Below, one piece after another: positions 32,238-48,676 of a stretch of DNA of 64,000 nt. Source of the stretch: an uncultured Clostridia bacterium (GTDB lineage: Bacteria > Bacillota > Clostridia > TANB77 > CAG-508); assembly GCA_944392805.1 (NCBI GenBank), contig CALXXZ010000006.1:21587-85586 (forward strand). The letters are read 5' to 3'. The position numbers were made by a program, and so were the translations under genes. Numbering within the stretch: the stretch's first letter is position 1; every line of letters starts with the position of its first letter. The notes under the pieces were generated by a model. The model saw only the letters and a program-made list of their open reading frames with translations, was not told the origin of the DNA and did not search any database.

Positions 32238-32642
32238 TTATTGTTTTCTATCCATGTTCATACATGTTCCATCATTCATGTAGAATTTCTTTTCTGCTAA
32301 TTTGTCTTGTACTCCTCTTAATGCTTCTCCAAATCTTTGAAAATGTACTATTTCTCTTTCTCTTAAGAATCTTAATGGATCTATTACATCTGGGTTGTCT
32401 CTACACAAATCTATTAATTTTTCATAAGTTGCTCTTGCTTTTTGCTCTGCTGCTAAGTCTTCTTGTAAGTTTGCTATTGCATCACCTTTACATGCTATAT
32501 ATGCTGCTGTAAATGGCATTCCTGCTGCTGATTGTGGATATACATCAACACCATGGTCTGTATAATATGGTCCTAATCCTGCTGCTTCTATTTCTTCTAT
32601 TGATGCTCCTTTTGTCAATTGATGAACTATTGCCCCAATCAT
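32238..32642 (-). pseudogene. cotJC: Spore coat protein CotJC (Mn-catalase family), C-terminal fragment (attB-distal half of a split gene)
   Basis: 134 aa from an internal Met. The in-frame upstream codons GTKELAHLE continue the CotJC sequence. ...LAHLEMIGAIVHQLTKGAS...AAGLGPYYTDHG...AAEQKARATYEKLIDL...LRFLREREIVHFQRF matches the CotJC/Mn-catalase C-terminal half. A stop lies immediately upstream at the insertion junction. Confidence 0.8.
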
Positions 32643-32678
32643 TTCTAAGTGAGCTAATTCTTTAGTACCATGTTCTTA

Positions 32679-34577
32679 TCAATCAATTTCAATAGCACCA
32701 GTATATAATCCATAATAAGTACCTTTTTTAGCAATTAATTCATTATGATTTCCTCTTTCAATAATTCTACCGTGGTCTAAAACCATAATTAAATCTGAAT
32801 TTCTAATAGTAGACAATCTATGTGCTATAACAAAAACAGTTCTTCCTTTCATTAATTTATCCATTCCTTCTTGAACTATTTTTTCTGTTCTTGTATCAAT
32901 ACTTGATGTAGCCTCATCTAATATTAAAACTGGTGGATTATTTAGTGCTGCTCTTGCAATAGATAATAGCTGTCTTTGTCCTTGAGATAAGCCTTCCCCA
33001 TTTCCTGTAATCATAGTATCATAACCTTGTGGTAAGTTTTTAATGAATTTATCTGCATTAGAAAGTTTTGCTGCTTCATAAACTTCTTCATCTGTTGCAT
33101 CTAATTTTCCATATCTGATGTTATCTTTTATAGTTCCTGTAAATAAACTAGTATCTTGTAAAACCATTCCTAAAGATCTTCTTAAGTCATCTTTTTTGAT
33201 TTTTCTGATATTGATTCTATCATAACGTATTTTTCCTTCTTGAATATCATAGAAACGATTTATTAAATTTGTAATTGTAGTCTTACCTGCCCCTGTTGCT
33301 CCAACAAATGAAACCTTTTGCCCCTCTTTTGCTGATAAAGTGATATCATGTAATATTCTTTTATTTTCTTCATAGCCAAATTGAACATTTTCAAATTCAA
33401 CTTGACCACGCAATCTTGTATATGTAATTCTTCCATCTTGATGTGGATGTTTCCAAGCCCATATTCCTGTTCTTTCTTTTGACTCTACGATTTTTCCATT
33501 TTCCATTTTAGCATTTACTAATGTAACATATCCTTCATCAATTTCTACTTCTTCGTCTATTAAGTCAAATATTCTTTCTGCTCCCGCTAATGCCATAACT
33601 ATGAAATTCATTTGTTGTGACACTTGACCTAATGGGTTTGTAAATGCTTTTACAAATTGTAAAAATGCTGCTATACTTCCTATTGTTAATATTCCATTAA
33701 CTGATAGCATTCCTCCTATTACTGCTACTAATACATATCCTAAATTACCAATATTCATTATACATGGCATTAAGATATTAGCATACATATTTGCTTTTGC
33801 ATTACTATCACATAAGTTTTCATTTAATTCATCAAATTTATTTTTAGATTGTTCTTCATAATTAAATACTTTAACAACTTTTTGACCTTCCATCATTTCT
33901 TCTATATATCCATCCATTTTCCCCAGGTCTTCTTGTTGTTTTACGAAATATCTTGAACTGTTTCCACCTAAATATTTAGATACAAATATCATTATAATCA
34001 TCATTGCAACAACTACTAATGTTAAATATATATTTGTAGTAAACATAGATATTAAAATTGTTACCATAGATACAATTGCTGAAAATACTTGTGGTATACT
34101 TTGGCTAAGCATTTCTCTTAAGCTATCTACATCATTTGTATAAATACTCATTATTTCCCCATGTGGTCTACTATCAAAATATATAATAGGTAATTTTTGC
34201 ATATGATTGAATAATTGTTTACGTATTTTATTTAATATTCCTTGAGATATGTTTATCATTAATCTATTATAAATGTATGTAGCTATTACTCCAACTAAAT
34301 ATATTAATGCCATTGTCATTATAACATTAAATAATGCTGTATAATCAGGATTTTGACTTCCTAGAAGTGGAGTAATAAAATCATCTATTAAATATTTAAT
34401 AAATTCAATACCAGCTACTCCTACTAATGAACTTATAATAATACTTATTAAAACAATAGCTAATTGTAATTTATAAGTTGTAAATACATATCCCAAAAGT
34501 CTTTTTATTGTAGCCCATTTTGTTCTTTTCTTTTTATTCTCCATCTTCTTCGTCATCTCCTTTCTTTTGAGATTCAT
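32679..34577 (-). CDS. ABC exporter, fused permease/ATPase (type I exporter, heterodimer partner B)
   Basis: 632 aa. An N-terminal six-transmembrane domain and a C-terminal NBD carry GATGAGKTT, LSQGQRQLLSIARA and ILDEATSSID. Confidence 0.8.
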   Translation of the reverse strand: MNLKRKEMTKKMENKKKRTKWATIKRLLGYVFTTYKLQLAIVLISIIISSLVGVAGIEFIKYLIDDFITPLLGSQNPDYTALFNVIMTMALIYLVGVIATYIYNRLMINISQGILNKIRKQLFNHMQKLPIIYFDSRPHGEIMSIYTNDVDSLREMLSQSIPQVFSAIVSMVTILISMFTTNIYLTLVVVAMMIIMIFVSKYLGGNSSRYFVKQQEDLGKMDGYIEEMMEGQKVVKVFNYEEQSKNKFDELNENLCDSNAKANMYANILMPCIMNIGNLGYVLVAVIGGMLSVNGILTIGSIAAFLQFVKAFTNPLGQVSQQMNFIVMALAGAERIFDLIDEEVEIDEGYVTLVNAKMENGKIVESKERTGIWAWKHPHQDGRITYTRLRGQVEFENVQFGYEENKRILHDITLSAKEGQKVSFVGATGAGKTTITNLINRFYDIQEGKIRYDRINIRKIKKDDLRRSLGMVLQDTSLFTGTIKDNIRYGKLDATDEEVYEAAKLSNADKFIKNLPQGYDTMITGNGEGLSQGQRQLLSIARAALNNPPVLILDEATSSIDTRTEKIVQEGMDKLMKGRTVFVIAHRLSTIRNSDLIMVLDHGRIIERGNHNELIAKKGTYYGLYTGAIEID

Positions 34578-36315
34578 ATACTTCTTTATAAATTTCGTTT
34601 GTCTTTAATAATTCTTCTGATGTTCCTATTCCATCAATTTCTCCATCATTTAATACAATAATTCTATCTGCATCTTCTATTGATGTTACTCTTTGTGCAA
34701 TTATTATTTTTGTTGTGTTTGGTATTTCTTCTCTAAATGCTTTTCTAATTAAACTATCTGTTTTTGTGTCTACTGCACTTGTAGAGTCATCTAATATTAG
34801 GATTTTTGGTTTTTTTAGTATTGCTCTTGCAATACATATTCTTTGTTTTTGACCTCCTGATACATTTGTTCCACCTTGATCTAAAACTGTTTCATATTTT
34901 GAAGGAAATTCTTGTATAAATCCATCTGCTTGTGCTAATTTACATGCATTTTCTAGTTCTTCTAGGTCTGCATTTTTCTTTCCCCAACGTAGATTTTCTG
35001 CAATTGTTCCAGAAAATAATACATTTTTCTGTAATACCATTGCTACTGAATCTCTTAATGCATGTATATCATAATCTTTTACATTAACTCCTCCTACTTG
35101 AATTTCACCTTTTGTTGCATCATAAAGTCTTGGTATTAATTGTACTAATGTTGATTTTGAACTTCCTGTTCCTCCTATTATTCCTATTGTTTCTCCTTCT
35201 TTTATTTCTAAATCGATATTTTTTAATGCAAATTTATTTTTATCTTCTTCATCACTATAACAGAAACTAACATTTTTAAATGTTATTGAACCATTTTTTA
35301 CTTCTTTAACAGGGTTTTCTGGATTTTTCAAACTTGGTTCTTCTTCTATTACTTCCATTATTCTTTCTGCTGATGATTGTGAAATGATAATCATTACAAA
35401 TACCATTGAAAGCATCATTAAACTTGATAATATTTGCCATGCATATGTAATTATACTTGATAGTTGCCCTGTTTGCATGCTTCCTCCAACTATTAGTTTT
35501 GAACCGAACCATGATATTAATAAAATACATGTATAAATTGTTAATTGCATTACAGGACTATTAAATGCTACTATTTTTTGAGCTTTTATGAAGTTTTTAT
35601 ATACTTCATCATTTACTTCTTTGAATTTTGCTTCTTCTGTGTCTTCACGCACATATGCTTTTACAACTCTTATTGCGTTTAGATTTTCTTGTACTACTCT
35701 ATTTAATTTGTCATATTTTTTGAATACTTTTTCGAAAATAGGATGTGCTTTTGTTGCTATTAAAAATAAAATAACTCCTAAGAATGGAATTGCAACTAAA
35801 AAGATTAAAGATAATTTACCACTAATTGATAATACCATTAAAAGTGCAAATATCATCATTATAGGTCCTCTTACTAATATACGTATTATCATTTGAAATG
35901 CCATTTGTACATTTGTTACATCTGTTGTCATTCTTGTTACTAAACTTGATGTTGAGAATTTATCTATATTTTCAAATGCATAATCTTGTACTTTATGAAA
36001 CATTTCTTTTCTTAGATTTTTAGCATATCCTGCTGAAGCTATTGCTGCAAATCTTCCTGATAACATTCCAAAAATTAATGACATTATTGCTGATATTATT
36101 AATAATATTCCCATCTTCAAAATGTAGTCAATATCACTGTTTTGAATTCCGACATCTATTATTCTTGCCATAAGAAGTGGTATAATAACTTCCATTATAA
36201 CTTCTAATACAACAAATATAGGTGTAAGTATTGCTTGTTTTTTGTACTCTTTAACATAACTTGCTAGTTTTTTTATCATTTTTTCTCCTTCCTTTCTTTT
36301 TAACATTAGTCTCAA
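34534..36315 (-). CDS. ABC exporter, fused permease/ATPase (heterodimer partner A)
   Basis: 593 aa. NBD motifs GGTGSSKST, VSGGQKQRICIARA and ILDDSTSAVD are present. It overlaps its partner gene by 44 nt. Confidence 0.8.
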   Translation of the reverse strand: MRLMLKRKEGEKMIKKLASYVKEYKKQAILTPIFVVLEVIMEVIIPLLMARIIDVGIQNSDIDYILKMGILLIISAIMSLIFGMLSGRFAAIASAGYAKNLRKEMFHKVQDYAFENIDKFSTSSLVTRMTTDVTNVQMAFQMIIRILVRGPIMMIFALLMVLSISGKLSLIFLVAIPFLGVILFLIATKAHPIFEKVFKKYDKLNRVVQENLNAIRVVKAYVREDTEEAKFKEVNDEVYKNFIKAQKIVAFNSPVMQLTIYTCILLISWFGSKLIVGGSMQTGQLSSIITYAWQILSSLMMLSMVFVMIIISQSSAERIMEVIEEEPSLKNPENPVKEVKNGSITFKNVSFCYSDEEDKNKFALKNIDLEIKEGETIGIIGGTGSSKSTLVQLIPRLYDATKGEIQVGGVNVKDYDIHALRDSVAMVLQKNVLFSGTIAENLRWGKKNADLEELENACKLAQADGFIQEFPSKYETVLDQGGTNVSGGQKQRICIARAILKKPKILILDDSTSAVDTKTDSLIRKAFREEIPNTTKIIIAQRVTSIEDADRIIVLNDGEIDGIGTSEELLKTNEIYKEVYESQKKGDDEEDGE

Positions 36316-36357
36316 AGCATTATTTTAAGATAAATTTTTTTATTTGTCAAGAAAAAT

Positions 36358-36388
36358 AATTATCCCCCAGTATAACTGGGGGATAATT
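36358..36388. promoter_or_regulatory. Perfect 14-bp-arm palindrome in a divergent promoter region (candidate operator)
   Basis: aattatcccccagt-ata-actgggggataatt lies between the ABC exporter operon (minus) and the surface-protein/sortase operon (plus). Both genes point away from it, so it is not a terminator for either. Confidence 0.4.
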
Positions 36389-36498
36389 ATGCAAATTCAC
36401 CTTTTATCAAATAAAAATTTTTGGAAAAAATTTTTAATGATTTTTGTAAATATTTAAAATTAAAAAGGAGACAATAATTTTTGATGGAGGTGAAAAAA

Positions 36499-37623
36499 AT
36501 GAATAAAACAATAAAATTCATTTTATTTTTTATAATAACAGCTATTTTTGCAATTATACTACCTAATTATAGTAATGCTGCAACAACAGCTCATGATGAA
36601 GAATCTTTAAATAGTGTAATTTCAAGTGCGGATCCAGGAGCAACAATAACATTACAAAATGATATTACAGTAACAAAACCAATTGTAATTGCTAAAGAAT
36701 TAACAATTGATGGTAATGGTCATAATGTAGTTGGTTCTAATGATTGGACATCAACATCAGGAAATCAAACAATGTTTACAGCTCAATTTTCTGCAGCTAA
36801 ACTTACATTAAGAAATATTCAATTAAAAAATGGTCCAAAATATGGTGTACAATCTTATGATGGTGCAACTGTAATTTTAGATAATGTTTCAATTTCAGGA
36901 TTTAAATTCGGTGGTGTTCTTGCAAATGGTGGTAATGTTGAAGTTAAAAGATTACATTTAGGAAAAAATGGTACTAACGAAAATAATGGTATAGAAATTG
37001 ACAAAGGTTCTGCCGCTACTAATAACCCAAGCTTAGTCATGAATGGTGTTTTAACAACTGATTCAAATCAAAATGTAATTCGTCCAGCTGAAAATGGTCA
37101 TTTAACAGATTTTACTATTACAAATACACCTGCTACTACAAACAAAGTTGTTTTATCAGGAAATAAAGTTGTTTTAACTGACTCAAAAAATAATGTTATT
37201 TCAGAAACAACTATACCAAGTAATGCTAAACCAAATGTAGATGTAAAACAACTTATTGTTACTATTTTTGCTAAGGATGTGACTTATAAAATCACAGTAA
37301 ATTCAGGTGAAAAAATTACAGCTGATTTATTAAAATCTCATATTAAACTAGAAAATAATCAAGTTGTTGATGGATTCTATACAGATGCAAATTTTGCTAA
37401 TGCTTTTGATTTTAATACTTCTATAACTACTGATACTACTGTCTATGCAAAAATATCAAAAGTTGAACCAACTGTACCAGAAACTCCACCACAAGTAAAT
37501 AATGGAGTAAAAGATGAAACACCAAAAACTGGTGCTCAAAATTATTTAGGAATAGCTGTATTAACTATATTATTCTCAATAGTAGCAATTGTAACTATTA
37601 ACAAGAAAAATATAAAAGGATAG
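36499..37623 (+). CDS. Cell-wall-anchored surface protein (beta-helix-like repeats) with C-terminal sortase-B-type sorting signal TPKTG
   Basis: Signal peptide MNKTIKFILFFIITAIFAIILPNYSNA, and a C-terminal ...ETPKTGAQNYLGIAVLTILFSIVAIVTINKKNIKG (motif, hydrophobic helix, basic tail). The start was chosen at 36499 after GGAGGTG. Confidence 0.6.
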   Translation: MNKTIKFILFFIITAIFAIILPNYSNAATTAHDEESLNSVISSADPGATITLQNDITVTKPIVIAKELTIDGNGHNVVGSNDWTSTSGNQTMFTAQFSAAKLTLRNIQLKNGPKYGVQSYDGATVILDNVSISGFKFGGVLANGGNVEVKRLHLGKNGTNENNGIEIDKGSAATNNPSLVMNGVLTTDSNQNVIRPAENGHLTDFTITNTPATTNKVVLSGNKVVLTDSKNNVISETTIPSNAKPNVDVKQLIVTIFAKDVTYKITVNSGEKITADLLKSHIKLENNQVVDGFYTDANFANAFDFNTSITTDTTVYAKISKVEPTVPETPPQVNNGVKDETPKTGAQNYLGIAVLTILFSIVAIVTINKKNIKG

Positions 37624-37665
37624 TCTTTAAGGTCTATCCTTATATAATATATTTTTGGAGTTAAC

Positions 37666-38481
37666 ATGGAAAAAACTAAAAGATTTTATGTTTTTATATA
37701 TTTTGTTTTAGTTTTATTAATTTTTTTATCAGTTATATACATCACATATTCTATGTTATTAAAAAAAGAAGCTATTGAAGAAAGTAACTTATTGAATAAT
37801 ATTAGTGATGATAAAATTGTTAGTAATGTTATAAGAAAAAATACAATTTCAAATACTACAGAATCTCCAGTTGAAACAACACCTAAAGAAACAGACAGAA
37901 TGCTTAAGGTAAAAGAACTTAAAAATCAAAATTCTGATATTGTAGGTTGGTTAGAAATACCCAATACTAGTATTAATTATCCAGTTTTACAAGGTTCTGA
38001 TAATCAATATTATATGAATCACAATTATAAAAAACAAAAGTCTAAAAATGGTTCTATTTTTTTAACAAAGGATTATAATTGGGAAATTCCAAGTAGTAAT
38101 TTTTTAATATACGGTCATAATTTGAATAATGGCACAATGTTTCAAGAATTATTAAAATATTCTAGTAAATCTTTTTATGAACAACATCCTAAAATTCGTT
38201 TTACAACTGTGAAAGATGATTCAGAATATGAAATTATTGCTGTTTTTAAATCAAGAGTATATTATCAATCAGAAAAAAATGTTTTTAGATATTATTTTTT
38301 TGTGAATGCTGAAACAGAACAAGAATATAATGATTTTATACAAAATGCGAAAAATGCATCTTTATATAATATTGATGCTACGGCAAAATATGGAGATCAA
38401 TTAATTACCTTATCTACTTGTTCTTATCATGTCAAAGATGGAAGATTTGCTGTGGTTGGAAGAAAAATTGAAAAATTATAA
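37666..38481 (+). CDS. srtB: Class B sortase
   Basis: 271 aa. N-terminal membrane anchor, then catalytic His (LIYGHN) and the TLSTC active-site Cys motif with a downstream Arg (FAVVGRK). A strong hairpin terminator follows at 38484-38515. Confidence 0.8.
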   Translation: MEKTKRFYVFIYFVLVLLIFLSVIYITYSMLLKKEAIEESNLLNNISDDKIVSNVIRKNTISNTTESPVETTPKETDRMLKVKELKNQNSDIVGWLEIPNTSINYPVLQGSDNQYYMNHNYKKQKSKNGSIFLTKDYNWEIPSSNFLIYGHNLNNGTMFQELLKYSSKSFYEQHPKIRFTTVKDDSEYEIIAVFKSRVYYQSEKNVFRYYFFVNAETEQEYNDFIQNAKNASLYNIDATAKYGDQLITLSTCSYHVKDGRFAVVGRKIEKL

Positions 38482-38753
38482 CAGTCATACAATTACAAAA
38501 TAATTGTATGACTGCCCTATTCTTTCATATCTATTTTATCAATTTTCGGATATCAATATTAGGTATTTTTTTATTCCGTGCTCATAAATTTTATAGAGGC
38601 GATTTTTATGATATTAGAAGAATATACCCTAGAAAATACAAAAATAAAATTTTACGATGATTATATAGTTAAGAATATTGATACTCAAAAAGAATATATA
38701 AATAATGTTATTATAAATTTGATAAGAAAATCCTTTTCATGAAAGGAGAAATT

Positions 38754-40301
38754 ATGCAAGATGGCACATATGCAATATATCTAAGAAAATCTAGAGAAGA
38801 TATTGAAGCTGAAAAATATGGTGAAGGCGAAACTTTAGCAAGACATGAAAAAATTTTAACTACTTTAGCCGAAAAGCGAAATCTACCCATTTCAAGAATT
38901 TATAAAGAAGTTGTAAGTGGCGAAACAATCAGTGAAAGAAAAGAAATGCAAAAACTTTTAAAAGATGTTGAAAATGAGAAATGGACTGGTATTTTAGTTG
39001 TTGAAGTAGAAAGACTTGCTCGTGGCGATACTGCTGATCAAGGTATAGTTGCAAAAGCCTTCAAATATTCACATACAAAAATTATCACTCCTATGAAAAT
39101 ATATGACCCTGACAATGAATTTGATGAAGAATATTTTGAATTTGGTCTATTTATGTCTAGAAGAGAATATAAAACTATAAATAGACGTTTACAAAGAGGA
39201 CGTGAACTCTCAGTTCAAGAAGGTAAATTTGTTGGAAATATTGCTCCATTTGGCTATGATAGATTAAAACTAAAAGATTCAAAAGGATATACCCTATCTA
39301 TAAATCAAGATGAAGCACTTATAGTTAAAGAAATTTTTAGATTATATGCTTTTGAAAATGCGACTTTAAATTCAGTTGCACAACAGCTAAATGATCTAAA
39401 TTTGAAACCTAGAATTGCAAATGAATGGACAATTTCTTCTGTTAAAGATATTCTTTCTAATCCTACCTATATTGGTAAAATTGCATGGAATAGAAGAAAA
39501 CAAAAAAAGAAAACCAAAAATGGAAATATTATCATTACTAGACCTCGTAACACAGAGTTTTTAATTTATGATGGATTACATGAACCTATTATTGATAATA
39601 AAACTTGGATTATAGTTCAGGAAAAAAGAAAACAAAATACTCCTAAAATAAAACATAGCAATACTATTCAAAATCCATTAGTAGGACTCGTTTTTTGTGA
39701 AAAATGTGGCAAGCTAATGCAAAGGCGACCTTATTCAAAAGATGGTAAGCCTGCAACTTTAATTTGTTCTAATCCAAAGTGTGATAATGTAAGTTCTAAA
39801 CTTTATATTGTTGAAAATAAAATTATCGAATCATTAAAAATATGGCTTAAAAATTTTAAAATAAATTATGATTTTAAAAATAACTCAAGTTTCAATAATG
39901 AAATAATTGAAAAATCTATTGTTTCAACTCAAAAAGAACTAAAAAAAGAAAATTTGAAGCTTGATAAAGTTTATGTGTTTTTAGAAAATGGATTGTATAA
40001 TAGTGATGAGTTTATTAATCGTTCAAAAATTATAAAAAATAATATTGAAAGTTTAGAAATTAAATTAAATAAATATAATTCTTTATTACAACAAAATTTA
40101 GAAGATCAAAAAAATACTACAATACCAAGTTTAGAAAATGTTATGGATTTATATTATAAACTAGAGACTGCTGGAGATAAAAATGCTTTTCTAAAGTGTT
40201 TACTTTCAAAAGTTACATATTTGAAAACAAAAAAGTCTATAAAAAAGGATTCTGACCCAACTAATTTTGAATTACATTTATATCCTAAAATATTAATCTA
40301 A
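38754..40301 (+). CDS. Large serine recombinase (resolvase/invertase catalytic domain + recombinase domain + zinc ribbon + coiled-coil)
   Basis: N-terminus MQDGTYAIYLRKSRED carries the catalytic Ser, and ...VVEVERLARGD is resolvase-like. Zn ribbon CEKCG...CSNPKC and a C-terminal coiled-coil follow. AAAGGAG lies 6 nt before ATG 38754. Confidence 0.85.
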   Translation: MQDGTYAIYLRKSREDIEAEKYGEGETLARHEKILTTLAEKRNLPISRIYKEVVSGETISERKEMQKLLKDVENEKWTGILVVEVERLARGDTADQGIVAKAFKYSHTKIITPMKIYDPDNEFDEEYFEFGLFMSRREYKTINRRLQRGRELSVQEGKFVGNIAPFGYDRLKLKDSKGYTLSINQDEALIVKEIFRLYAFENATLNSVAQQLNDLNLKPRIANEWTISSVKDILSNPTYIGKIAWNRRKQKKKTKNGNIIITRPRNTEFLIYDGLHEPIIDNKTWIIVQEKRKQNTPKIKHSNTIQNPLVGLVFCEKCGKLMQRRPYSKDGKPATLICSNPKCDNVSSKLYIVENKIIESLKIWLKNFKINYDFKNNSSFNNEIIEKSIVSTQKELKKENLKLDKVYVFLENGLYNSDEFINRSKIIKNNIESLEIKLNKYNSLLQQNLEDQKNTTIPSLENVMDLYYKLETAGDKNAFLKCLLSKVTYLKTKKSIKKDSDPTNFELHLYPKILI

Positions 40302-40400
40302 TCACATAAAAATACTACTTTAACAACAATTGTGAAAGAATAAATATGTGCATTTTTAAGCATATTTATTCTTTTGAATATTCTCCCAAATGAAGAGTAT

Positions 40401-40883
40401 TTAATTTTTATCTTTTAATAAAACATTTCTCATTTCAACTATATCATAAAAAGGAATATGTATTCCTTCTTCTGCTAATCTTACTACTCTTAATGCAATA
40501 GTTATAATCTCATCTTTAACTACTTTTGGAATTTCTACATCTATATTTGAATTTATATACTTTTCTGCTATGTATTTTTCAGTAGTTGGAAAAATATTTT
40601 GTATCAAGAATACAGCTTTTTTTCCTAACACATTTCCAAAAACAAAATTATATACCGGTCGATTTCCAATTTTTAATTTTTTATTATCATAGATTTTTTT
40701 GTATTTATCATATTTAGTTGATATAGGAACAAACCATATTATTTCTTTATCTTTTCTATCTCTAAAACAAAAATAGCAAGGTCTTTTATTTCCAGATTCT
40801 TTATTTTTCATTAATTTATATTTTTTAAATATATCAAAAAACTCATCTTTTATAAAATAAAATTTTCCATCTTCTATTACCAT
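40401..40883 (-). CDS. ToxN/AbiQ-like endoribonuclease toxin candidate (type III toxin-antitoxin / abortive infection)
   Basis: 160 aa. The N-terminus KFYFIKDEFFDIFKKY...NKRPCYFCF...VPISTKY...FLIQNIFPTTEKY matches the ToxN/AbiQ pattern (KFY.I..Y...L..FD.KV...RP/NP....PL[ST]S.K; ...MIPI.E). It is immediately preceded by tandem repeats and a terminator in the type III toxin-antitoxin arrangement. Confidence 0.5.
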   Translation of the reverse strand: MVIEDGKFYFIKDEFFDIFKKYKLMKNKESGNKRPCYFCFRDRKDKEIIWFVPISTKYDKYKKIYDNKKLKIGNRPVYNFVFGNVLGKKAVFLIQNIFPTTEKYIAEKYINSNIDVEIPKVVKDEIITIALRVVRLAEEGIHIPFYDIVEMRNVLLKDKN

Positions 40884-40953
40884 TCTTTATCTCCTTTTAT
40901 GAAAATATGGGATCTAACTTAACTTTATAGACCCCATATTTTTACTATACTTA

Positions 40954-41060
40954 ACATTTTTTCACCTGCACATTTATATCTCGCAAGCAGGGTTGCGGTT
41001 CACATTTTTTCACCTATCCATTTATTCGACGCAAATAGGGTTGCGACTCACATTTTTAAT
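40954..41060 (-). ncRNA. Candidate type III antitoxin RNA: 2.2 tandem 48-nt repeats upstream of the ToxN-like gene
   Basis: R1 acattttttcacctgcacatttatatctcgcaagcagggttgcggttc and R2 acattttttcacctatccatttattcgacgcaaatagggttgcgactc are ~75% identical. Each has a conserved cgcaa-N6-ttgcg stem. A partial third repeat follows. A hairpin (aaatatgggatctaac...agaccccatattt, ~40905-40945) separates the repeats from the toxin gene. Confidence 0.5.
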
Positions 41061-41201
41061 TATAGTAGATATAAAATATCTACTACTATTATATTCATTA
41101 TACACACTTTTTATTAATATTTCAAGATTTATTTACAAATTAATTGAAAAAATTTTGGAAATTCACTAAATATGTTTTAATGTCTCTAGCTATTGACAAC
41201 A

Positions 41202-41408
41202 TCATGATACCCATTCTTCAGTACCAATATCATTTAATATAGCTTTTGCATTTTGGTCAGGCATACCAAATCTTTGAGACAAATATCTTAAAGAAGCCGC
41301 AAGTTCACCATCAGGACCTCCATATTGAGAAATTATTACTTTTGCAAGACGAGGGTCTGTGCATTTAATATTAACCGGATATTGTAGCATTTTATTATAA
41401 GTCCACAT
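41202..41408 (-). pseudogene. cotJC: Spore coat protein CotJC, N-terminal fragment (65 native codons + 3 element-encoded codons), with native ribosome-binding site
   Basis: MWTYNKMLQYPVNIKCTDPRLAKVIISQYGGPDGELAASLRYLSQRFGMPDQNAKAILNDIGTEE matches the CotJC N-terminus (B. subtilis MWVYEKKLQYPVKVS...LLTDIGTEE). It is followed by WVS-stop from the insertion. AAGGGGGAA lies 8 nt upstream of the ATG. Confidence 0.8.
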
Positions 41409-41472
41409 TTAAAAATTCCCCCTTTCCCAAGGCCACCCTTGGTTCAATATGGAGGAATTTTTTATAATTGTT

Positions 41473-43057
41473 TCATGCAGAAATATCAAATTTATACTTT
41501 ATATTGACATTTCTATCATCTATAACAATTCTATCAATTAACTTAAAAGCTAAACTTACATTTTCATCATTCAATTCATTAAGGTCTAAAATTTCTTTTA
41601 TTAAATCTCTATTATTTTTTCTTACATTAGCACTCTCTATTTTCTTTATTTCATATCTTTTTATCTCAATTTCTAATTGTTGTTTTTGACTTTCATATTT
41701 TTTTATAAGGTTTGAAAAAGTATCTTGTGAGATTATTTTAGCTATTTTATCTTCATATAAGTTACTTATTAATTTATTAACTTCTCGTTTTTTATTTTGA
41801 ATATTCATAATATCATTTTCATCATTTTCTTTATTTTGGATACCGTTTAAATTGCAAATCTGAAATATTTAAGAATTTTTGTATATTATTTTTTAATGAC
41901 CTTCTAACGATTTCTATTAATTCATCTTCTCTTATGTGGACACCTTCGCAAAAGTTTTTTCCATATTTTTTATAATTTGAACACACACATCTAAAATATC
42001 TGCCATGATTTTTATTATATGTAATTTTACTACCACATTTACAATAAACTAAGCCTGTTAATAAATGTCTTTTTCTATTAGAATAATTCCATTCATTTGT
42101 CTGTTTTTCTAGCATTTCTTGTACAGTATTATAAACTGCTCTACTTATTATAGCAGGATAATTATTTTCTACTATCACTTGTTTATCTGGAGATACTTTT
42201 TCAGTTTTTTGTATCTTATAATTTATTTTTTTAGATTTCAGTTGAATTAAATCTCCCACATAGCTTCTATCTCTCAATATCTTATTAATAATTGTAGAAT
42301 TCCATTTATATGTACAATTCTGTTTTGCATTTGGATTATAATAATTTGTTGTGTCTTGCTTATGTTGTAATGGTGTTTTTATTCCCCACTCATTAAACTT
42401 ATTTGCAATTTGTGTTTTTGAATTTCCTGACATATATAAATCAAAAATCTTTCTTACATTATCAGCAACTTCTTCATCTATTAATATATTATTTTTATTG
42501 TGTATATCTTTTTTCAAGCCATATGGTAAAAATGGTTTTATACATTCTCCTGCATTTGCTTTTGTAGTAATTACTGTTCTTACTTTATTTGAAATATCTT
42601 TTGCATACATATCATTAAATACTGCTTTAAACGGTGTTATATCGCTACTAAAATTATTTATATCAAATGTATCTATATTATCATTGACTGCGATATATCT
42701 TACTCTTTTTTCTGGAAAGTATTTCTCTAAAAATCGTCCTGTTTCTATGTAATCCCTTCCTAATCTTGATAAGTCTTTTGTAATAACTAAATTGATTATT
42801 CCATTTTCTATGTCTTTTATCATTCTCTGAAAAGCTGGTCTATTAAAATTTGTTCCAGTATAGCCATCGTCTGAATAAATGTCTATTAAATTCCATTTCA
42901 TTTTTAATACGACATTTTTTAAGAATTTAATCTGATTTTCAATACTTTCTGATTGACTTTTATATTTTGCTTCTTTCTCATCTTCTCTTGATAGCCTTAC
43001 ATATATGGCCACTTTCCATGTACCTTCTTCTACTAAATAGTTATCTGACTCATACAT
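41473..43057 (-). pseudogene. Second large serine recombinase, interrupted by a stop plus +1 frameshift (408-aa + 111-aa ORFs); probably inactivated
   Basis: 43057..41831 encodes the catalytic domain (AIYVRLSREDEKEAKY...), the recombinase domain and a zinc ribbon (CKCGSK...CVCSNYKKYGKNFC). 41808..41473 encodes the C-terminal coiled-coil expected in the same protein. The two are out of frame and 22 nt apart. The gene ends 64 bp from the cotJC ATG. Confidence 0.65.
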
Positions 43058-43457
43058 ACTTCCCTCCTATCTTGAGTCTATAACTACTTTTCTATTGTTC
43101 TTGAAATAAAAAAATAATTATTTTCATCAATCCAACTTTGAATTAAGTCCAATAATTTCTTCCCATCTTTTGTATATGTTTCTGTTATATTTTCATTCAA
43201 TGTAATCACCTCAATACAGTATATGCATTGGCAGTAAAAAATAGTTAAGAAATGGTTTCTTAGCTATTTTTTTGAATTGAATATAATATTTATGAATATA
43301 TTTTATATTAATTTTTTGATTATGTCTACTCTATTTTTTTACCTTTTTTTATCTTTATGTTATTTTCTGCCAAAATTTCCTATAATATTCAAGGTTGAAT
43401 TTTTAGTTTTTTATTGATACAATTCCAAAAAATAAAATTTTTAAAGGAGATATTGTT

Positions 43458-44003
43458 TTGGAAGAACTAATAAAAAATACATTGAATGGTGATAAGCATT
43501 CTTTTGAAGTTTTAATTGATTCTGTAGAAAGCGACTTATATCGTGTTGCACAAGCTAAACTTAGTAATATTGATGATATAAATGATGCTATTCAAGAAAC
43601 AATTACTAAAGCTTATTCTAAACTACATACTTTAAAGAAATCGAAATATTTTAGAACTTGGATTATAAAAATTTTGATTAATGAATGTAATGTTATTTAC
43701 AGAAAGAAGTATAAGCAAGCTAAAATTTTTAATAAATTATCTATTTCTAAAATTACTGATGAGGTTACTAATCCTTTTAATATTGTGGAAGATAAAATTG
43801 ATTTTGATATTTTACTTAAACATTTAAACGAAAAAGAACAATTAATTTTAGCTTTATATTTTAATAGTAAATTTATTCCTGATGAAATATCTGATATTTT
43901 GGGCATTAATGTAAATACTGTTAAAAGTATAATTTATAGAGCTAAAGAAAAACTTAAAAAATTTGTGGAAAAGGAGGAATTAGATAATGAATCAAGAAAA
44001 TAA
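43458..44003 (+). CDS. ECF-type sigma-70 family RNA polymerase sigma factor (paralog 1 of 3)
   Basis: 181 aa. Region 2 (DDINDAIQETITKAYSKL...WIIKILINECN) and region 4 (ISDILGINVNTVKSIIYRAKEKL) are present. TTG start with AAAGGAGA ribosome-binding site. Confidence 0.7.
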   Translation: MEELIKNTLNGDKHSFEVLIDSVESDLYRVAQAKLSNIDDINDAIQETITKAYSKLHTLKKSKYFRTWIIKILINECNVIYRKKYKQAKIFNKLSISKITDEVTNPFNIVEDKIDFDILLKHLNEKEQLILALYFNSKFIPDEISDILGINVNTVKSIIYRAKEKLKKFVEKEELDNESRK

Positions 44004-45045
44004 TGATAACTTAGATAAATTTTTATTTGATGCATATGAAAAAAATAAAGATATTCCTCTTTCTACTCAGAATATTATTGATAATACTATTGATAATTTA
44101 TTTGCTGAGAAAAATGTTAAACATAAAAAATCTTTTAATTTTGTACTAAAAAGAGTTGCTGTTTTGGTAATTTCACTTAGTGTCGTTACAGCTTCTACCG
44201 TTTTTGCTAAGGATATTATTAATTTCTTTACTTCGATTTTTACTAATAGCAATAAAGGCGTAGATACTGCTGTTGAAAATGGCTATGTGCAAAATGTGGA
44301 TATGGATTTTATTGAAGATAATAATTTGGGTGTTAAAGTTGATTATGTGCTTATGGATGACCACAATCTTAATATTTCATTTGTATATAAATACTTGGGT
44401 GATGATGTTTCTCAAATTACTGGGTTGAATTATATGGATTTAACTATTAAGGATGAAAATGAGAATGTTTTATATAGGTCTTCTAAAGATAATCAAAATG
44501 ATAATATGGTAAGTAATATTACAAAATACACAAACAATCAACAAATTATAGATAACACTACAATTAGAAGTTCTTTATTAGCTGCTTCTAATAATTTTCC
44601 AAAATCGGAAATGTTGTATATTTCAATAAATAATATATCTTTAAATAGTAATGATGAACTTATAAATGTTAATGGTAATTGGAATTTCTCAATAAATTTA
44701 GCTGATAAATTTATATATAGAACTAGTTATAAATATAATTGTAGTGATAATAAATATATTAACAATATAGAAACTTTACTTACAGACACTTCTTTAAAGA
44801 TCACTTTACAATTAAATACACCTTTTAATAAAAATATGATTTATTTGTACAATTCTATTATTTTAAAAGACGTTGATAATAAAGTATATTCTTATACTGA
44901 AATGTCAAGTAAAAATACCTCTGATTCAACTAGTTCAATTACATTATTTTATCCAATTACAATTTATGATACAAATATTGATAAATTATTTTTACATATT
45001 GATTTAGATACAGATAAAAGTATTGATATAGAATTATTAAAATGA
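43987..45045 (+). CDS. Putative anti-sigma factor: short cytoplasmic N-terminus, single transmembrane helix, large Asn/Ser-rich extracytoplasmic domain
   Basis: 352 aa. It overlaps the sigma gene by 17 nt. Transmembrane helix RVAVLVISLSVVTASTVFA. A terminator follows at 45050-45075 (gaggcatcaccaagatgcctctttt). Confidence 0.45.
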   Translation: MNQENNDNLDKFLFDAYEKNKDIPLSTQNIIDNTIDNLFAEKNVKHKKSFNFVLKRVAVLVISLSVVTASTVFAKDIINFFTSIFTNSNKGVDTAVENGYVQNVDMDFIEDNNLGVKVDYVLMDDHNLNISFVYKYLGDDVSQITGLNYMDLTIKDENENVLYRSSKDNQNDNMVSNITKYTNNQQIIDNTTIRSSLLAASNNFPKSEMLYISINNISLNSNDELINVNGNWNFSINLADKFIYRTSYKYNCSDNKYINNIETLLTDTSLKITLQLNTPFNKNMIYLYNSIILKDVDNKVYSYTEMSSKNTSDSTSSITLFYPITIYDTNIDKLFLHIDLDTDKSIDIELLK

Positions 45046-45134
45046 GAGGCATCACCAAGATGCCTCTTTTACAAGAAAATGATTCAATCAAATTAAATTA
45101 TTTACAGCTTCTCATTTAAATCTTTAGACGCATT

Positions 45135-45671
45135 TCAGCCCCATGTATCGAAATACATACATACTCTTAAATTAGAACTGCTACCAGTTACAAGGTAATA
45201 CTTGAAATAATATGTCCTATTAGGGACAATCTTTACATTAGGTACTGTTATTGCAGTACCATCCGCTGTTGCTGTAGCAATAACTAAACAATTATTATTG
45301 TAATCCCACAGCTCCGCAGAAACTTGTTTATTTGGATAGGAATTTCCATCCGCTCCAATTACCTCAAGGGTAAAATTGAGATAATTGCCACTATATTTTC
45401 TATCAGCACCACGGTAGTAGTTTCCTTTCATCGTAAAACATGACTGTATTAAATAGGTTCCTACACCATTTTCATCGACACTTTCCGGTGTCAACTCCAT
45501 TTCGTACGTTGTCCGTGTCTTTCCATTATCCAGTTTTTCGACTGAAACAATTTTTCCATTTGGATTTTCATTGTCAGCCTCGGCTGCAAGAGATACCATA
45601 GAAAAATTAGAAAAGCCCATCAACATAGCCATTACAAAAGCAACAATCCGATTTCTTTTTTTGGTCAACAT
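45135..45671 (-). CDS. Secreted protein of unknown function with clearly higher GC than its surroundings (likely horizontally acquired)
   Basis: 178 aa. Signal peptide MLTKKRNRIVAFVMAMLMGFSNFSMVSLAAEA. The coding sequence is roughly 38-40% GC against a ~25% background, with codon usage using C/G third positions. Confidence 0.5.
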   Translation of the reverse strand: MLTKKRNRIVAFVMAMLMGFSNFSMVSLAAEADNENPNGKIVSVEKLDNGKTRTTYEMELTPESVDENGVGTYLIQSCFTMKGNYYRGADRKYSGNYLNFTLEVIGADGNSYPNKQVSAELWDYNNNCLVIATATADGTAITVPNVKIVPNRTYYFKYYLVTGSSSNLRVCMYFDTWG

Positions 45672-45948
45672 ACATTTTCCTCCTTATTCTAGACCCAATT
45701 AAATCATTTTCCTGCTAAACCAATAAGTTACAGTTTGAAATTTATCTTAAACTTAACTATTGATTTCAAGTTATTACTTGTTTTGTACAGTTTCGTACAT
45801 TTCTTGGTAATTTTAGCACAAAAAGTTACAAAAAATAAAAAAAGGTAAAAAAAGATAAATATTTTTTACTTTTTTTCGACATTTTTTTAATATTTTGCAT
45901 TCGAATATCATTTTTTCGCATCTAATGTTTGGGAGATGGAAGGAAAAA

Positions 45949-46668
45949 ATGTTAAATTTACTTATTATTGATAAAGATGTTAATCATTCTATGAAATTAC
46001 TTAATGAATTTTCAAAAAATGCTGAAATTAAAGTATATAATGTTACTAGCACATTATTAGATGGAATTAAACTTTTAAATACTGGTATTATAGACATAAC
46101 TATAATAAATCTTAATTGTACAATTGATGAAATTACTAATGCTTTTAAACTAATTTCGAAATCATATATTGAAAAATACAACAAATCTATGATTGTATTG
46201 TCTAGTAAGGTTAGCAAATTGACTTCAAATGATTTTGTATACAGTTTTATTGATGATACTGAAGATATTTCAAAAATTTATATTAAAACTTGTGAAATAG
46301 TTGAAAACAAGTTTTATAAAATAAATAAAATTGATTTACTTACTAAGATAAATAAAGAATTAGAATATATTGGTTACAATATGTCCTATAATGGAACAAA
46401 ATACTTATCTGAATGTATTGCGCTAATTTATAGTAGTCATGATTATAGTGAAAATTTGAACAAAAACATTTATCCTGTTATTGCTAAAAAATATAATAAA
46501 ACTATCAATAATGTTAAGTGTAGTATCACTTGTGCAACTACTTCTATGTTTTATGATTGTGATGAAACTAGATTAAAAAATTATTTTAATTTTTATACTG
46601 TTATTAAGCCAAAACCTAAAGTCGTTATTTATACGATATTGAATAAAATTTATAATATAAAGTGCTAG
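45949..46668 (+). CDS. Spo0A-like protein: degenerate receiver domain (phospho-acceptor Asp replaced by Asn) + Spo0A C-terminal DNA-binding domain
   Basis: The C-terminal ...NIYPVIAKKYNKTINNVKCSITCATTSMF aligns to the Spo0A_C helix-turn-helix region ([26 protein letters not shown]). The N-terminal ~110 aa have a receiver-like pattern (IIDKD...ITIINLN...MIVLSS) but Asn sits at the Asp56 position. The start was chosen at 45949 after GGAAGGA. Confidence 0.5.
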   Translation: MLNLLIIDKDVNHSMKLLNEFSKNAEIKVYNVTSTLLDGIKLLNTGIIDITIINLNCTIDEITNAFKLISKSYIEKYNKSMIVLSSKVSKLTSNDFVYSFIDDTEDISKIYIKTCEIVENKFYKINKIDLLTKINKELEYIGYNMSYNGTKYLSECIALIYSSHDYSENLNKNIYPVIAKKYNKTINNVKCSITCATTSMFYDCDETRLKNYFNFYTVIKPKPKVVIYTILNKIYNIKC

Positions 46669-46747
46669 TACAAAAAATAGAAGAATATCAATAGTTAGAA
46701 AAAACTATTGATATTCTTCTTTAATAATCATGGATAATTGTATAAAT

Positions 46748-47755
46748 TTAAAAATAAAATCCAACACACAAATTTTCTTTAAATTCATTACTTAATTCTA
46801 TTTGATTTAGTTTTACATTCATGTTATATGATGATATTTCCATATTTGAATATGTATTATAAATATAATCTTGTACTTTTTCATTATTACATCTAGTTTG
46901 GTCTAAATAAACCCTATATTCATTTTCTATATATTGTATATCAAAAATACTCATTGAATAATCTATTTTATCTTGTACTCTAACAATTCTAATAAAATCT
47001 TCTTTATTATTTTTTGTATTTTCTACAAATTGTTCTATTCTAAATTTATTATCAGAAATCACTTCCGAATTATAAATTACAACACAATTATCTAAAACGG
47101 CTTGTTCTTTTGAATAATCTTTTGGAAGTTCCTCTAATGGTACATAACCATCTGATTTAGGTATTTTTTTTGCTCTATCAACATGAATCTCATCTCTATC
47201 TAATGTATTACTAATTTTTACTGACAAAATTTCTTTTTGGCTCTCATTTTCATTATCTCTATCTATTTCTACATATAATATTTTGTCATCAGTTTCTATA
47301 TTAGAAACATAAATACCAGGCATATATGGACTTGTTGATATTATAATTAGCAAAAAGTTATCTTTAAAATCTTCTTCTGTCATTTCAATTAAATTACTCA
47401 TGTTTTCTTTATATTTTAAATAATCATTAAAATTAGTTATTTTCTTATAATAAAATCTATTCATATATTCCATATCTTCTTTATAATCATAACTATAATT
47501 TGATACTGCAGTTTTTTGCGTAAAATATTCATATGCTGTTGTAAGTCCATATACTAATCCTGAAGTCCCTAAAAGTACTAATATTATTGTGATAGTACTT
47601 GTTAATAATTTTCTTATTTTATAATTGATTTCATTCTTTTGCTTTGTCTTTAATGTATAATCAATCCTATGTTCAATCTGTTGTGGTATTATAGTGTCTT
47701 TTTTACTTAAATCTTTTAATACTTCTTCAATTTCTTTCATACAATTCACCTCCAT
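46748..47755 (-). CDS. Putative anti-sigma factor (single transmembrane helix, extracytoplasmic domain), partner of sigma paralog 2
   Basis: 335 aa. Transmembrane helix LLTSTITIILVLLGTSGLVYGL. It overlaps the sigma gene by 29 nt. Confidence 0.4.
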   Translation of the reverse strand: MEVNCMKEIEEVLKDLSKKDTIIPQQIEHRIDYTLKTKQKNEINYKIRKLLTSTITIILVLLGTSGLVYGLTTAYEYFTQKTAVSNYSYDYKEDMEYMNRFYYKKITNFNDYLKYKENMSNLIEMTEEDFKDNFLLIIISTSPYMPGIYVSNIETDDKILYVEIDRDNENESQKEILSVKISNTLDRDEIHVDRAKKIPKSDGYVPLEELPKDYSKEQAVLDNCVVIYNSEVISDNKFRIEQFVENTKNNKEDFIRIVRVQDKIDYSMSIFDIQYIENEYRVYLDQTRCNNEKVQDYIYNTYSNMEISSYNMNVKLNQIELSNEFKENLCVGFYF

Positions 47756-48275
47756 ATTCTTGTCTTAATTTATCTTTCGCCCTTCTTATTTTAGTTTTGA
47801 TAGTATTTTCATTTTTCCTCATAATATGACCTATCTCTTTTGTTGTATATCCTGAATAATAGTATAAAGTTAAAATTGTTTGTTCATCAGGTGATAAATT
47901 TTTTATAAACATTTCAAAGTCTATTTTTTCTAAATTATCTTCTACTTCAATATACTTGTCCATTTCATTTTCTTCAATTGAAATATTGTATTTTTTCTTT
48001 TTATTATAAATATTATTGCATTTACTTATTAGTATTTTTATTAACCATGGTTTAAATACTTTATCATTTTTTAGTTTTCGGATATTTTTATAACAAGTTA
48101 ATATTGTATCTTGTATTGCATCTGCTATATCATCCATATCATTAAGTCTTGTCCTTGCTATACAGTACAAGTCACTTTTTATAGAATTTATTAATTCATC
48201 AAATGCTTCATCATCTTCTTTGGCTTTTTTCACTAATTCTTCCAATTTTAGTTCCTCCATTTTTAATATGTACAT
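47727..48275 (-). CDS. ECF-type sigma-70 family sigma factor (paralog 2 of 3)
   Basis: 182 aa. It shares DDI.DAIQ.T...WLIKILI.KCN and region-4 motifs with the other two paralogs. It begins 8 bp after the cotJB stop. Confidence 0.7.
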   Translation of the reverse strand: MYILKMEELKLEELVKKAKEDDEAFDELINSIKSDLYCIARTRLNDMDDIADAIQDTILTCYKNIRKLKNDKVFKPWLIKILISKCNNIYNKKKKYNISIEENEMDKYIEVEDNLEKIDFEMFIKNLSPDEQTILTLYYYSGYTTKEIGHIMRKNENTIKTKIRRAKDKLRQEYGGELYERN

Positions 48276-48283
48276 ATTTATAC

Positions 48284-48676
48284 TTATAAGACCGCCAATA
48301 GGTTATTATTAGTTTCAAAAATATCAAATTTTACATCTAAACAAAACGAACCCCATGGTTCTTCAAGCCATCTCCATTTATTACATGGAAATTGAATAGT
48401 CAATGGTCCATAAACTTTTTGATATTTATCTGTTAATTCTCTGTATTCTTTACTATATTTTCTATGCAAGCATAAAGCTTTTTCATCTTCAGGATGAGTG
48501 TCTAGATATAAAGCCAATTCGGTAATAGCAAAATTCAAGCATTTTATTCTTTCCATCATTTCTTCTCTAGTTTGATCATAATTGCAATCATTATTTGGCA
48601 TAGGATTATTAGTCATATACATTGAATAATTATTATTCATCATACAATTGCAATTTCTATTATCCATTTCGTTCAT
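48284..48676 (-). CDS. cotJB: Spore coat protein CotJB
   Basis: 130 aa. FAITELALYLDTHPEDEKALCLHRKYSKEYRELTDKYQKVYGPLT matches the CotJB domain (..L.LYLDTHP.D..AL..Y.....EL...Y...YGPL). An Asn/Met-rich N-terminal extension is present. Confidence 0.75.
   Translation of the reverse strand: MNEMDNRNCNCMMNNNYSMYMTNNPMPNNDCNYDQTREEMMERIKCLNFAITELALYLDTHPEDEKALCLHRKYSKEYRELTDKYQKVYGPLTIQFPCNKWRWLEEPWGSFCLDVKFDIFETNNNLLAVL

Follow-up and report, generated by a model that had tools for sequence, protein, structure and literature searches.

Among type III toxin-antitoxin systems, the family called cptIN was defined by Blower et al. (2012), with repeats of 40-48 nucleotides (nt; mean 44.8) in 1.9-3.4 copies and toxins of 45-213 amino acids (aa) (PMC3401426, Table 2); a promoter upstream of the repeats was preferred in that definition, though not strictly required (PMC3401426). 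Among described systems the closest is CptIN from Eubacterium rectale (E. rectale), known from the structure PDB 4RMO (Rao et al. 2015, PMC4627078). Its 45-nt CptI unit, which can be recovered from a primer in Table 2 of PMC4627078 as AAGUUUACCACUGACCGAUAUGUGGUAUAUAAAUGGUCGGGUUGA, has a loop 1 of 1 nt (G13), a loop 2 with the sequence AUAUAAAUG (A27-G35) and the 3′ end U43-G44-A45. In the complex G44 stacks on Tyr104 of the toxin and A45 carries a 2′,3′-cyclic phosphate, and the mutants A29U and delta-U30 have been tested for antitoxicity (PMC4627078). Here we describe a locus in 64,000 nt of DNA from an uncultured Clostridia bacterium (assembly GCA_944392805.1, contig CALXXZ010000006.1, positions 21,587 to 85,586), a stretch referred to as the window throughout, with position 1 as its first letter. 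On the minus strand between 41125 and 40401, a promoter, tandem repeats and a toxin gene together very probably make up a CptIN-family type III toxin-antitoxin module that is intact. A sequence-only reading of the window had suggested that the 48-nt repeat might mark a distinct subfamily; cptIN repeats of 40-48 nt are already on record (PMC3401426), and repeat length, copy number and toxin length all fall inside the published ranges, 48 nt being the upper end. The locus is therefore a new member of a known family and not a new subfamily. The identity and architecture of the module are well supported, whilst its biological role is inferred.

The toxin gene, cptN (40401..40883, ATG start), encodes a predicted CptN-family endoribonuclease of 160 aa. 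Its match in NCBIfam is to the equivalog NF047359 ('type III toxin-antitoxin system CptIN family toxin'), with a score of 155.1 bits where the cutoff is 90, and it spans profile positions 1-149 of 150. Moreover, residues 7-141 match the CptN crystal structure 4RMO_A with an expectation value (E) of 7e-17 and an identity, counted from the alignment, of ~33%. When a profile was built from 31 relatives that are 31-52% identical to the window toxin, it matched 4RMO_A over its full length (E 7e-47), and the next match was to MazF at a non-significant E of 0.16. The CptN family is large, comprising 901 clusters at 50% identity (E <= 1e-3). The segment P53-I-S55-T56-K57 aligns with P49-L-S51-S52-R53 of the E. 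rectale toxin (CptN_Er) and Y109 aligns with Y104; judged by this motif, S51-S52-R53 would be the Ser-Ser/Thr-Arg active-site triad of CptN_Er and S55-T56-K57 its counterpart. Four residues, S55, W50, Q95 and P99, are invariant across the 31 relatives.

A promoter, leader hairpin, two repeats, partial repeat, terminator and toxin follow one another in the same order in ~75 of 80 related loci, all from species-representative, metagenome-assembled genomes of uncultured gut Clostridia (numbered here with the prefix L). The recurrence of this layout in other genomes shows that the repeat is not a product of chance. In the window all of these features lie on the minus strand. The predicted cptI promoter, of sigma-70/sigma-A type (41097..41125), consists of TTGAAA, a 17-nt spacer and TATAAT; it agrees with 11 of 12 consensus positions and by consensus match is the top-scoring site of the region, and almost every related locus has TTGAnn-17-TATAAT at the equivalent place. 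A 5′ leader hairpin (41057..41091; core stem 41086..41062), with a predicted folding energy of -12.1 kcal/mol (z = -3.9), follows between the -10 box and repeat 1. A leader hairpin is predicted in 39 of 40 distinct leaders, the divergent loci L041, L050, L051, L073 and L077 having stems of unrelated sequence, which argues that structure rather than sequence is conserved. The hairpin may help to keep the precursor transcript stable at its 5′ end, and no mention of such a hairpin was found in the CptIN descriptions of PMC4627078 and PMC3401426.

Tandem Repeats Finder reports the array at 40954..41057, with a period of 48, 2.2 copies, 82% matches and a score of 136. It contains two full 48-nt units, repeat 1 (R1, 41010..41057) and repeat 2 (R2, 40962..41009), both delimited by sequence, repeat array and covariation, and a partial third repeat of 12 nt (AAAAAUGUUAAG; 40950..40961, lower end approximate). 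The latter is kept as AAAAAUGUUAAUUAUAGU in most related loci and, by analogy with other type III arrays, would give R2 its 3′ cleavage context. Between cptI and cptN, an intrinsic-terminator-like hairpin (40902..40942) is followed by UUUUC. Its folding energy of -18.4 kcal/mol (z = -5.6) was equalled by 0 of 200 shuffles, and the divergent loci L050, L071, L073 and L076 also have a hairpin here, though of unrelated sequence. A simple consensus terminator scan of the region found nothing, because the loop is longer than the scan allows. Lastly, a ribosome-binding site, AAGGAG (40891..40896), stands 7 nt 5′ of the ATG. The sequence-only reading had given the minus-strand open reading frame (ORF) of 160 aa, the hairpin terminator and the 2.2 repeats of 48 nt accurately in both coordinates and description.

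Covariation demonstrates that each repeat unit folds as an H-type pseudoknot. Repeat units were extracted from the related loci by a sequence-only hidden Markov model, and the 59 distinct units were aligned with MAFFT blind to structure. Covariation was used in place of minimum free energy folding of single units, which cannot represent pseudoknots and gave non-significant z-scores. In the resulting model, stem 1 (S1) pairs positions 13-17 with 24-28, loop 1 is C18, stem 2 (S2) pairs positions 19-23 with 41-45 and loop 2 spans 29-40. Across the 59 units, 98.3% of cells are paired, and changes on both sides are found in 7 of 10 pairs, for example as CGCCA/UGGCG, CGGAG/CUCCG, CCAGU/ACUGG and CCGGU/ACCGG. 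None of 500 shuffles reached the observed values, and sliding the 3′ partners by 1-3 columns left only 25-50% paired. In the window R1 reads AAAAAUGUGAGU-CGCAA-C-CCUAU-UUGCG-UCGAAUAAAUGG-AUAGG-UGA and R2 reads AAAAAUGUGAAC-CGCAA-C-CCUGC-UUGCG-AGAUAUAAAUGU-GCAGG-UGA. The S2 arms are thus CCUAU/AUAGG in R1 and CCUGC/GCAGG in R2, with the partner segment ~20 nt downstream; two S2 pairs differ between the units, both differences are compensatory, and both pseudoknots pair perfectly. The stem CGCAA-N6-TTGCG, which the sequence-only reading had described as conserved, is present in both units. What it had taken for divergent loops is the 5′ arm of a second stem, covarying with a segment 20 nt downstream, and the pseudoknot it had proposed to look for in the repeat RNA is borne out.

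Several of the positions that are constant, or nearly so, have counterparts in the E. rectale RNA (CptI_Er). Loop 1 is a single invariant C (C18), U46 and G47 are invariant in the 59 units, and both window units end in UGA. The A-rich loop 2, of 12 nt, contains the most conserved stretch of the unit, A33-U34-A35-A36-A37-U38 (AUAAAU). This stretch and U46-G47 correspond to A29-U34 and U43-G44 of CptI_Er, and loop 2 of R2 contains AUAUAAAUG, a 9-mer identical to A27-G35 of the E. rectale unit.

Some results count against the explanation as an intact CptIN module. Comparison of the repeat profile with the CptI_Er unit by nhmmer gave a non-significant 1.7 bits, covering the loop 2 motif only; since RNA similarity is confined to this motif, we claim shared architecture and key motifs and not homology of RNA sequence. 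In the toxin, V85 and A90 stand where CptN_Er has Asp81 and Ser85, which read the scissile adenine there, and to judge from this alignment the cleavage specificity here may differ from that of CptN_Er. That these residues are not conserved is consistent with the report that each CptN co-evolves with its own RNA (PMC4627078). An AlphaFold2 model from a shallow alignment of 12 sequences (predicted local distance difference test 45, predicted template modelling score 0.34) was too poor for fold comparison.

Exactly two full units are present in 75 of the related loci. As a separate observation, R1 and R2 are not identical at any locus: there are 28 variants of R1 and 31 of R2, none common to both sets, and each retains its own S2 helix and loop 2 over many genomes, with a mean within-locus identity of 0.79. 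The number of full units is exactly two at every intact locus, in agreement with the 2:2 stoichiometry of the 4RMO complex. We considered whether the S2 difference blocks cross-pairing between R1 and R2 and set the idea aside as weakly supported, given that 4 of 5 pairs would still form in trans.

Apart from phage defence, which is treated below, three other explanations of the locus were weighed against an intact CptIN module. The sequence-only reading had called it a ToxN/AbiQ-like type III system; the type III kind stands, whereas the family does not, given the NF047359 match of 155 bits and the 4RMO_A match at E 7e-17. Membership of the ToxIN/AbiQ family, or of a longer-repeat subfamily of it, would account for the same locus grammar, and CptN and ToxN are distant structural relatives which share a fold and an active-site cage at <15% sequence identity (PMC4627078). 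PF13958 is also weakly matched by 3 of the 31 relatives, all distant CptN proteins (best E 3.6e-5), consistent with that kinship. However, PF13958, the profile by which the sequence-only reading had proposed to check the ORF, is not among the Pfam matches of the window toxin at E <= 1, a search that returned no match to any family; ToxN or AbiQ chains in the PDB were matched neither by the toxin sequence nor by the family profile, whilst CptN was matched at E 7e-47; and the 48-nt unit falls within the cptIN range. We therefore regard a ToxIN/AbiQ assignment as highly improbable. Decay into a non-functional remnant has precedents, as several cptIN loci in Blower et al. have truncated toxins (PMC3401426) and truncation also occurs in related loci L061, L070, L072 and L080. 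Against this, the window ORF is full length (160 aa, compared with 155-165 aa in relatives) with all family-invariant residues, both pseudoknots are perfectly paired, and promoter, terminator and ribosome-binding site are intact, so that decay, too, appears very unlikely.

It is hardly conceivable that the repeats are something other than antitoxin RNA, such as low-complexity coding sequence, binding sites for a recombinase or a leader that regulates in cis. The array does lie ~150 nt from the core of a recombination junction (attL, described below), and antisense frames through the repeats are often open (in 14-28 of 41 distinct arrays), which we attribute to T-rich composition. Yet the pattern of compensatory changes is that of the pseudoknot rather than of codons, units measure between 46 and 49 nt, a variation that shifts the frames, and the array accompanies cptN into loci with neither an attachment site nor a recombinase. 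Sense-strand frames are closed in almost all arrays. The sequence-only reading had seen no ORF through the repeats, and no reading frame is conserved across arrays; a 58-aa antisense ORF with a TTG start (40993..41169, plus strand), running through repeats and promoter, was rejected as spurious on the same ground. Moreover, an Rfam search of 40000-42000 at E <= 10 returned chance matches only, with no match of the repeats to a family and no ToxI-like family.

The module sits at the edge of an element that splits the spore-coat gene cotJC. The first 65 codons of cotJC end at 41211 (5′ fragment, 41408..41211) and the remainder begins at 32669 on the same strand (3′ fragment, 32669..32238). These fragments correspond to positions 1-66 and 63-197 of the Mn_catalase profile, and a tblastn search with B. 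subtilis CotJC placed residues 1-65 and 61-189 in the two. Both junctions carry a 13-nt core on the minus strand, GGTACTGAAGAAT at the left (attL, 41213..41225, at the end of the 5′ fragment) and GGTACTAAAGAAT at the right (attR, 32657..32669, at the start of the 3′ fragment). Joining the cores gives an in-frame reading in which NDIGTEE is followed directly by LAHLEM. The insert of 8.5 kilobases (kb) holds two ABC exporter genes, a gene for a 380-aa protein, a sortase gene, a large serine recombinase gene and cptIN. The recombinase (520 aa; 38739..40301, plus strand; Resolvase, Recombinase and Zn_ribbon_recom domains) is convergent with cptN, and the cptI promoter starts ~90 nt inside the left junction. 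The DNA upstream of the recombinase gene was inspected by eye for sigma-E and sigma-K promoters, and none found there was convincing. Interruption of cotJC by an element has been described before, from Laceyella sacchari (Galperin et al. 2022 preprint, 10.1101/2022.02.25.481979).

The remaining cargo of the element (32679..38481), with its half-size ABC exporter genes (632 and 593 aa), the 380-aa protein lacking a Pfam match and the sortase, may be a surface-protein or peptide-export cassette. Both cotJA and cotJB lie upstream of the split cotJC, and a second insertion of ~6.9 kb (41409..48283) parts cotJB (48284..48676) from the intact cotJC start (41408). Encoded in this insertion are two sigma-70/ECF-type factors, a DUF4179 protein, a protein whose C-terminal domain is that of Spo0A, and another large serine recombinase, the latter read as two ORFs of 408 aa (41831..43057) and 111 aa (41473..41808). 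No such gap separates cotJA, cotJB and cotJC in the related locus L001, where they are contiguous. In the window organism the cotJ operon thus appears to be interrupted twice.

Among the related loci, cptIN lies directly against a cotJC fragment in 16 of 80. In L001 it is beside the 5′ fragment, as in the window, and in the rest it is beside the 3′ fragment (L003-L012, L017, L023, L070 and L079). In eleven loci of the 3′-fragment type, a recombinase gene, 85-91% identical, diverges upstream. Between the two types, the arms at the junctions are inverted copies of one another, ...GACATCATCATGG followed by the core in one and the core followed by GGGTATCATGATGTTGTC in the other, as expected for two halves of one attP. 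Sequence downstream of cptN in L001 also resembles the P-arm of the other type (TTTCACAGTCAATAGCCTTAAATTTT); in the window, a search downstream of cptN for a remnant of the P-arm motif, TWCAGYCAAYAG, gave chance-level matches only, located elsewhere. Taken together, the arrangement of the two types suggests rearranged or tandem elements with a persistent linkage between cptIN and attP.

Across the 80 loci, about half have a large serine recombinase within 3 kb. Apart from the loci at cotJC, ~20 (L020-L069) have a different large serine recombinase immediately downstream of cptN. These recombinases, together with those of L087-L092, are 25-27% identical to the window ones and are often near yabG and veg. 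Some clade members are located upstream of a small SpoIIID-family helix-turn-helix gene with TnpV. The cptIN clade is mobile cargo whose association with serine-recombinase elements is marked but not exclusive. No homologues were found in 50,697 phage records, and plasmid homologues numbered only 6, all distant (30-42% identity).

By comparison with the described type III systems, the module would work as follows. From the sigma-A-type promoter an RNA of ~190 nt would be made, comprising the 5′ hairpin, two 48-nt units, the 12-nt partial unit and the terminator hairpin. If the ToxIN paradigm holds, a minority of transcripts would pass the terminator and be translated into CptN. The toxin would then cleave the precursor at the unit boundaries, after the final A of ...GGUGA (GGUGA followed by AAAAAUG), a site proposed from its likeness to ...GUUGA in E. 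rectale CptI, where A45 is scissile. The released 48-nt units would fold as pseudoknots, with S1 CGCAA/UUGCG, a C as loop 1 and S2 CCUAU/AUAGG or CCUGC/GCAGG, and re-bind CptN to block its active site, probably in a ring of 2 proteins and 2 RNAs as in 4RMO. Should the supply of cptI stop, the RNA would decay and free CptN would cut cellular RNA and arrest growth.

What the module does for its host or its element is a matter of inference, and two roles, which are not mutually exclusive, come close to one another. Retention of the element is in our view the most likely local role, though we put it forward tentatively and at less than even chance. The excised 8.5-kb element would be a non-replicating circle, so that arrest of vegetative cells which lose it is the likeliest local consequence of the module; the terminal mother cell would be unharmed. 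In E. coli, CptIN of E. rectale raised plasmid retention from ~50% to 100% (PMC4627078). Suzuki et al. 2020 (PMC6957869) speak of toxin-antitoxin modules in general terms only, as cargo that can influence how stable mobile elements are. The literature searched contained no published link between type III toxin-antitoxin modules and sporulation-gene intervening elements. Telling against retention are close relatives with no recombinase in the stretch read, in the truB-cysS gap and beside dprA, and further ones beside yabG/veg with the SpoIIID-like gene and TnpV; these neighbourhoods imply that the module is not tied to excising elements.

Phage defence is the close rival, and a real possibility. 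According to this explanation the module is chiefly abortive-infection cargo whose position is incidental: shut-off of host transcription by a phage would deplete CptI, and the freed CptN would kill the infected cell. The ToxIN and TenpIN families do abort phage infection (PMC3401426), and the same cptIN clade occurs at varied chromosomal sites beside unannotated genes, as is common for defence cargo. However, E. rectale CptIN gave no protection by abortive infection against >200 coliphages, albeit only in E. coli (PMC4627078), and as about half of the related loci adjoin large serine recombinases, element maintenance fits at least as well. A PADLOC run on the locus gave no match, and this could be counted against defence along with the empty search of phage records, but neither search bears on such a role. 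The more general proposal, that CptIN is a retention device of sporulation-gene intervening elements and of related serine-recombinase elements and would travel with the recombinase and attP as a unit beside the attachment site, with an obligate mixed 2:2 complex of the two non-identical pseudoknots as a second possibility, we consider rather unlikely.

As it stands, the locus is an ordinary CptIN member in an interesting location, and its sole unusual feature is its place at the edge of an element that splits a spore-coat gene. That location and the clade-specific details, namely the leader hairpin and the two persistently different repeats, are of modest interest. The analysis adds a well-supported clade (~75 loci with a covariation-backed pseudoknot) to a family with a single characterised representative, and it identifies the RNA positions under constraint across that clade: the C of loop 1, AUAAAU in loop 2 and the 3′ UG(A). 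It also offers a testable reason for the persistence of small non-phage intervening elements, in the form of a cargo module from a family for which stabilisation of non-partitioning DNA has been shown in E. coli. If retention were indeed its role, programmed DNA excision would be linked with post-segregational killing.

Compared with known systems, the module resembles ToxIN of Pectobacterium atrosepticum and Bacillus thuringiensis and AbiQ/AntiQ in that the toxin, an endoribonuclease, processes a tandem-repeat pseudoknot RNA of its own which then inhibits it, whilst a terminator sets the ratio of RNA to toxin. It differs from them in showing no detectable sequence match, and their units, of 36, 34 and 35 nt, are more numerous; the ToxIN complex is a 3:3 triangle, and both ToxIN and AbiQ/AntiQ have a proven role in abortive infection. 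The element which carries it is like the skin and SPbeta-type elements in that a mother-cell gene is split, a large serine recombinase is present, the junction cores are short and identical, and joining restores the frame; these serve as context only. The nearest likeness is to E. rectale CptIN, which has a toxin of the same family and ~two tandem repeats followed by a terminator and then the toxin gene, an H-type pseudoknot with a 1-nt loop 1, an A-rich loop 2 containing AUAUAAAUG/AUAAAU and a 3′ end in ...UGA, and which is likewise chromosomal in a gut member of the Clostridia. The two toxins are nevertheless only ~33% identical, with a putative Ser-Thr-Lys triad in place of Ser-Ser-Arg in CptN_Er and without conserved equivalents of Asp81 and Ser85. 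The units also differ in length (48 nt here and 45 nt in E. rectale), in the 5′ single-stranded tail (12 nt and 6), in the number of nucleotides between the S2 5′ arm and the S1 3′ arm (0 and 3) and in loop 2 (12 nt and 9). Finally, in contrast to E. rectale CptIN, the window locus has consistently non-identical repeats and a conserved 5′ leader hairpin, and it lies at the junction of a sporulation-gene intervening element.

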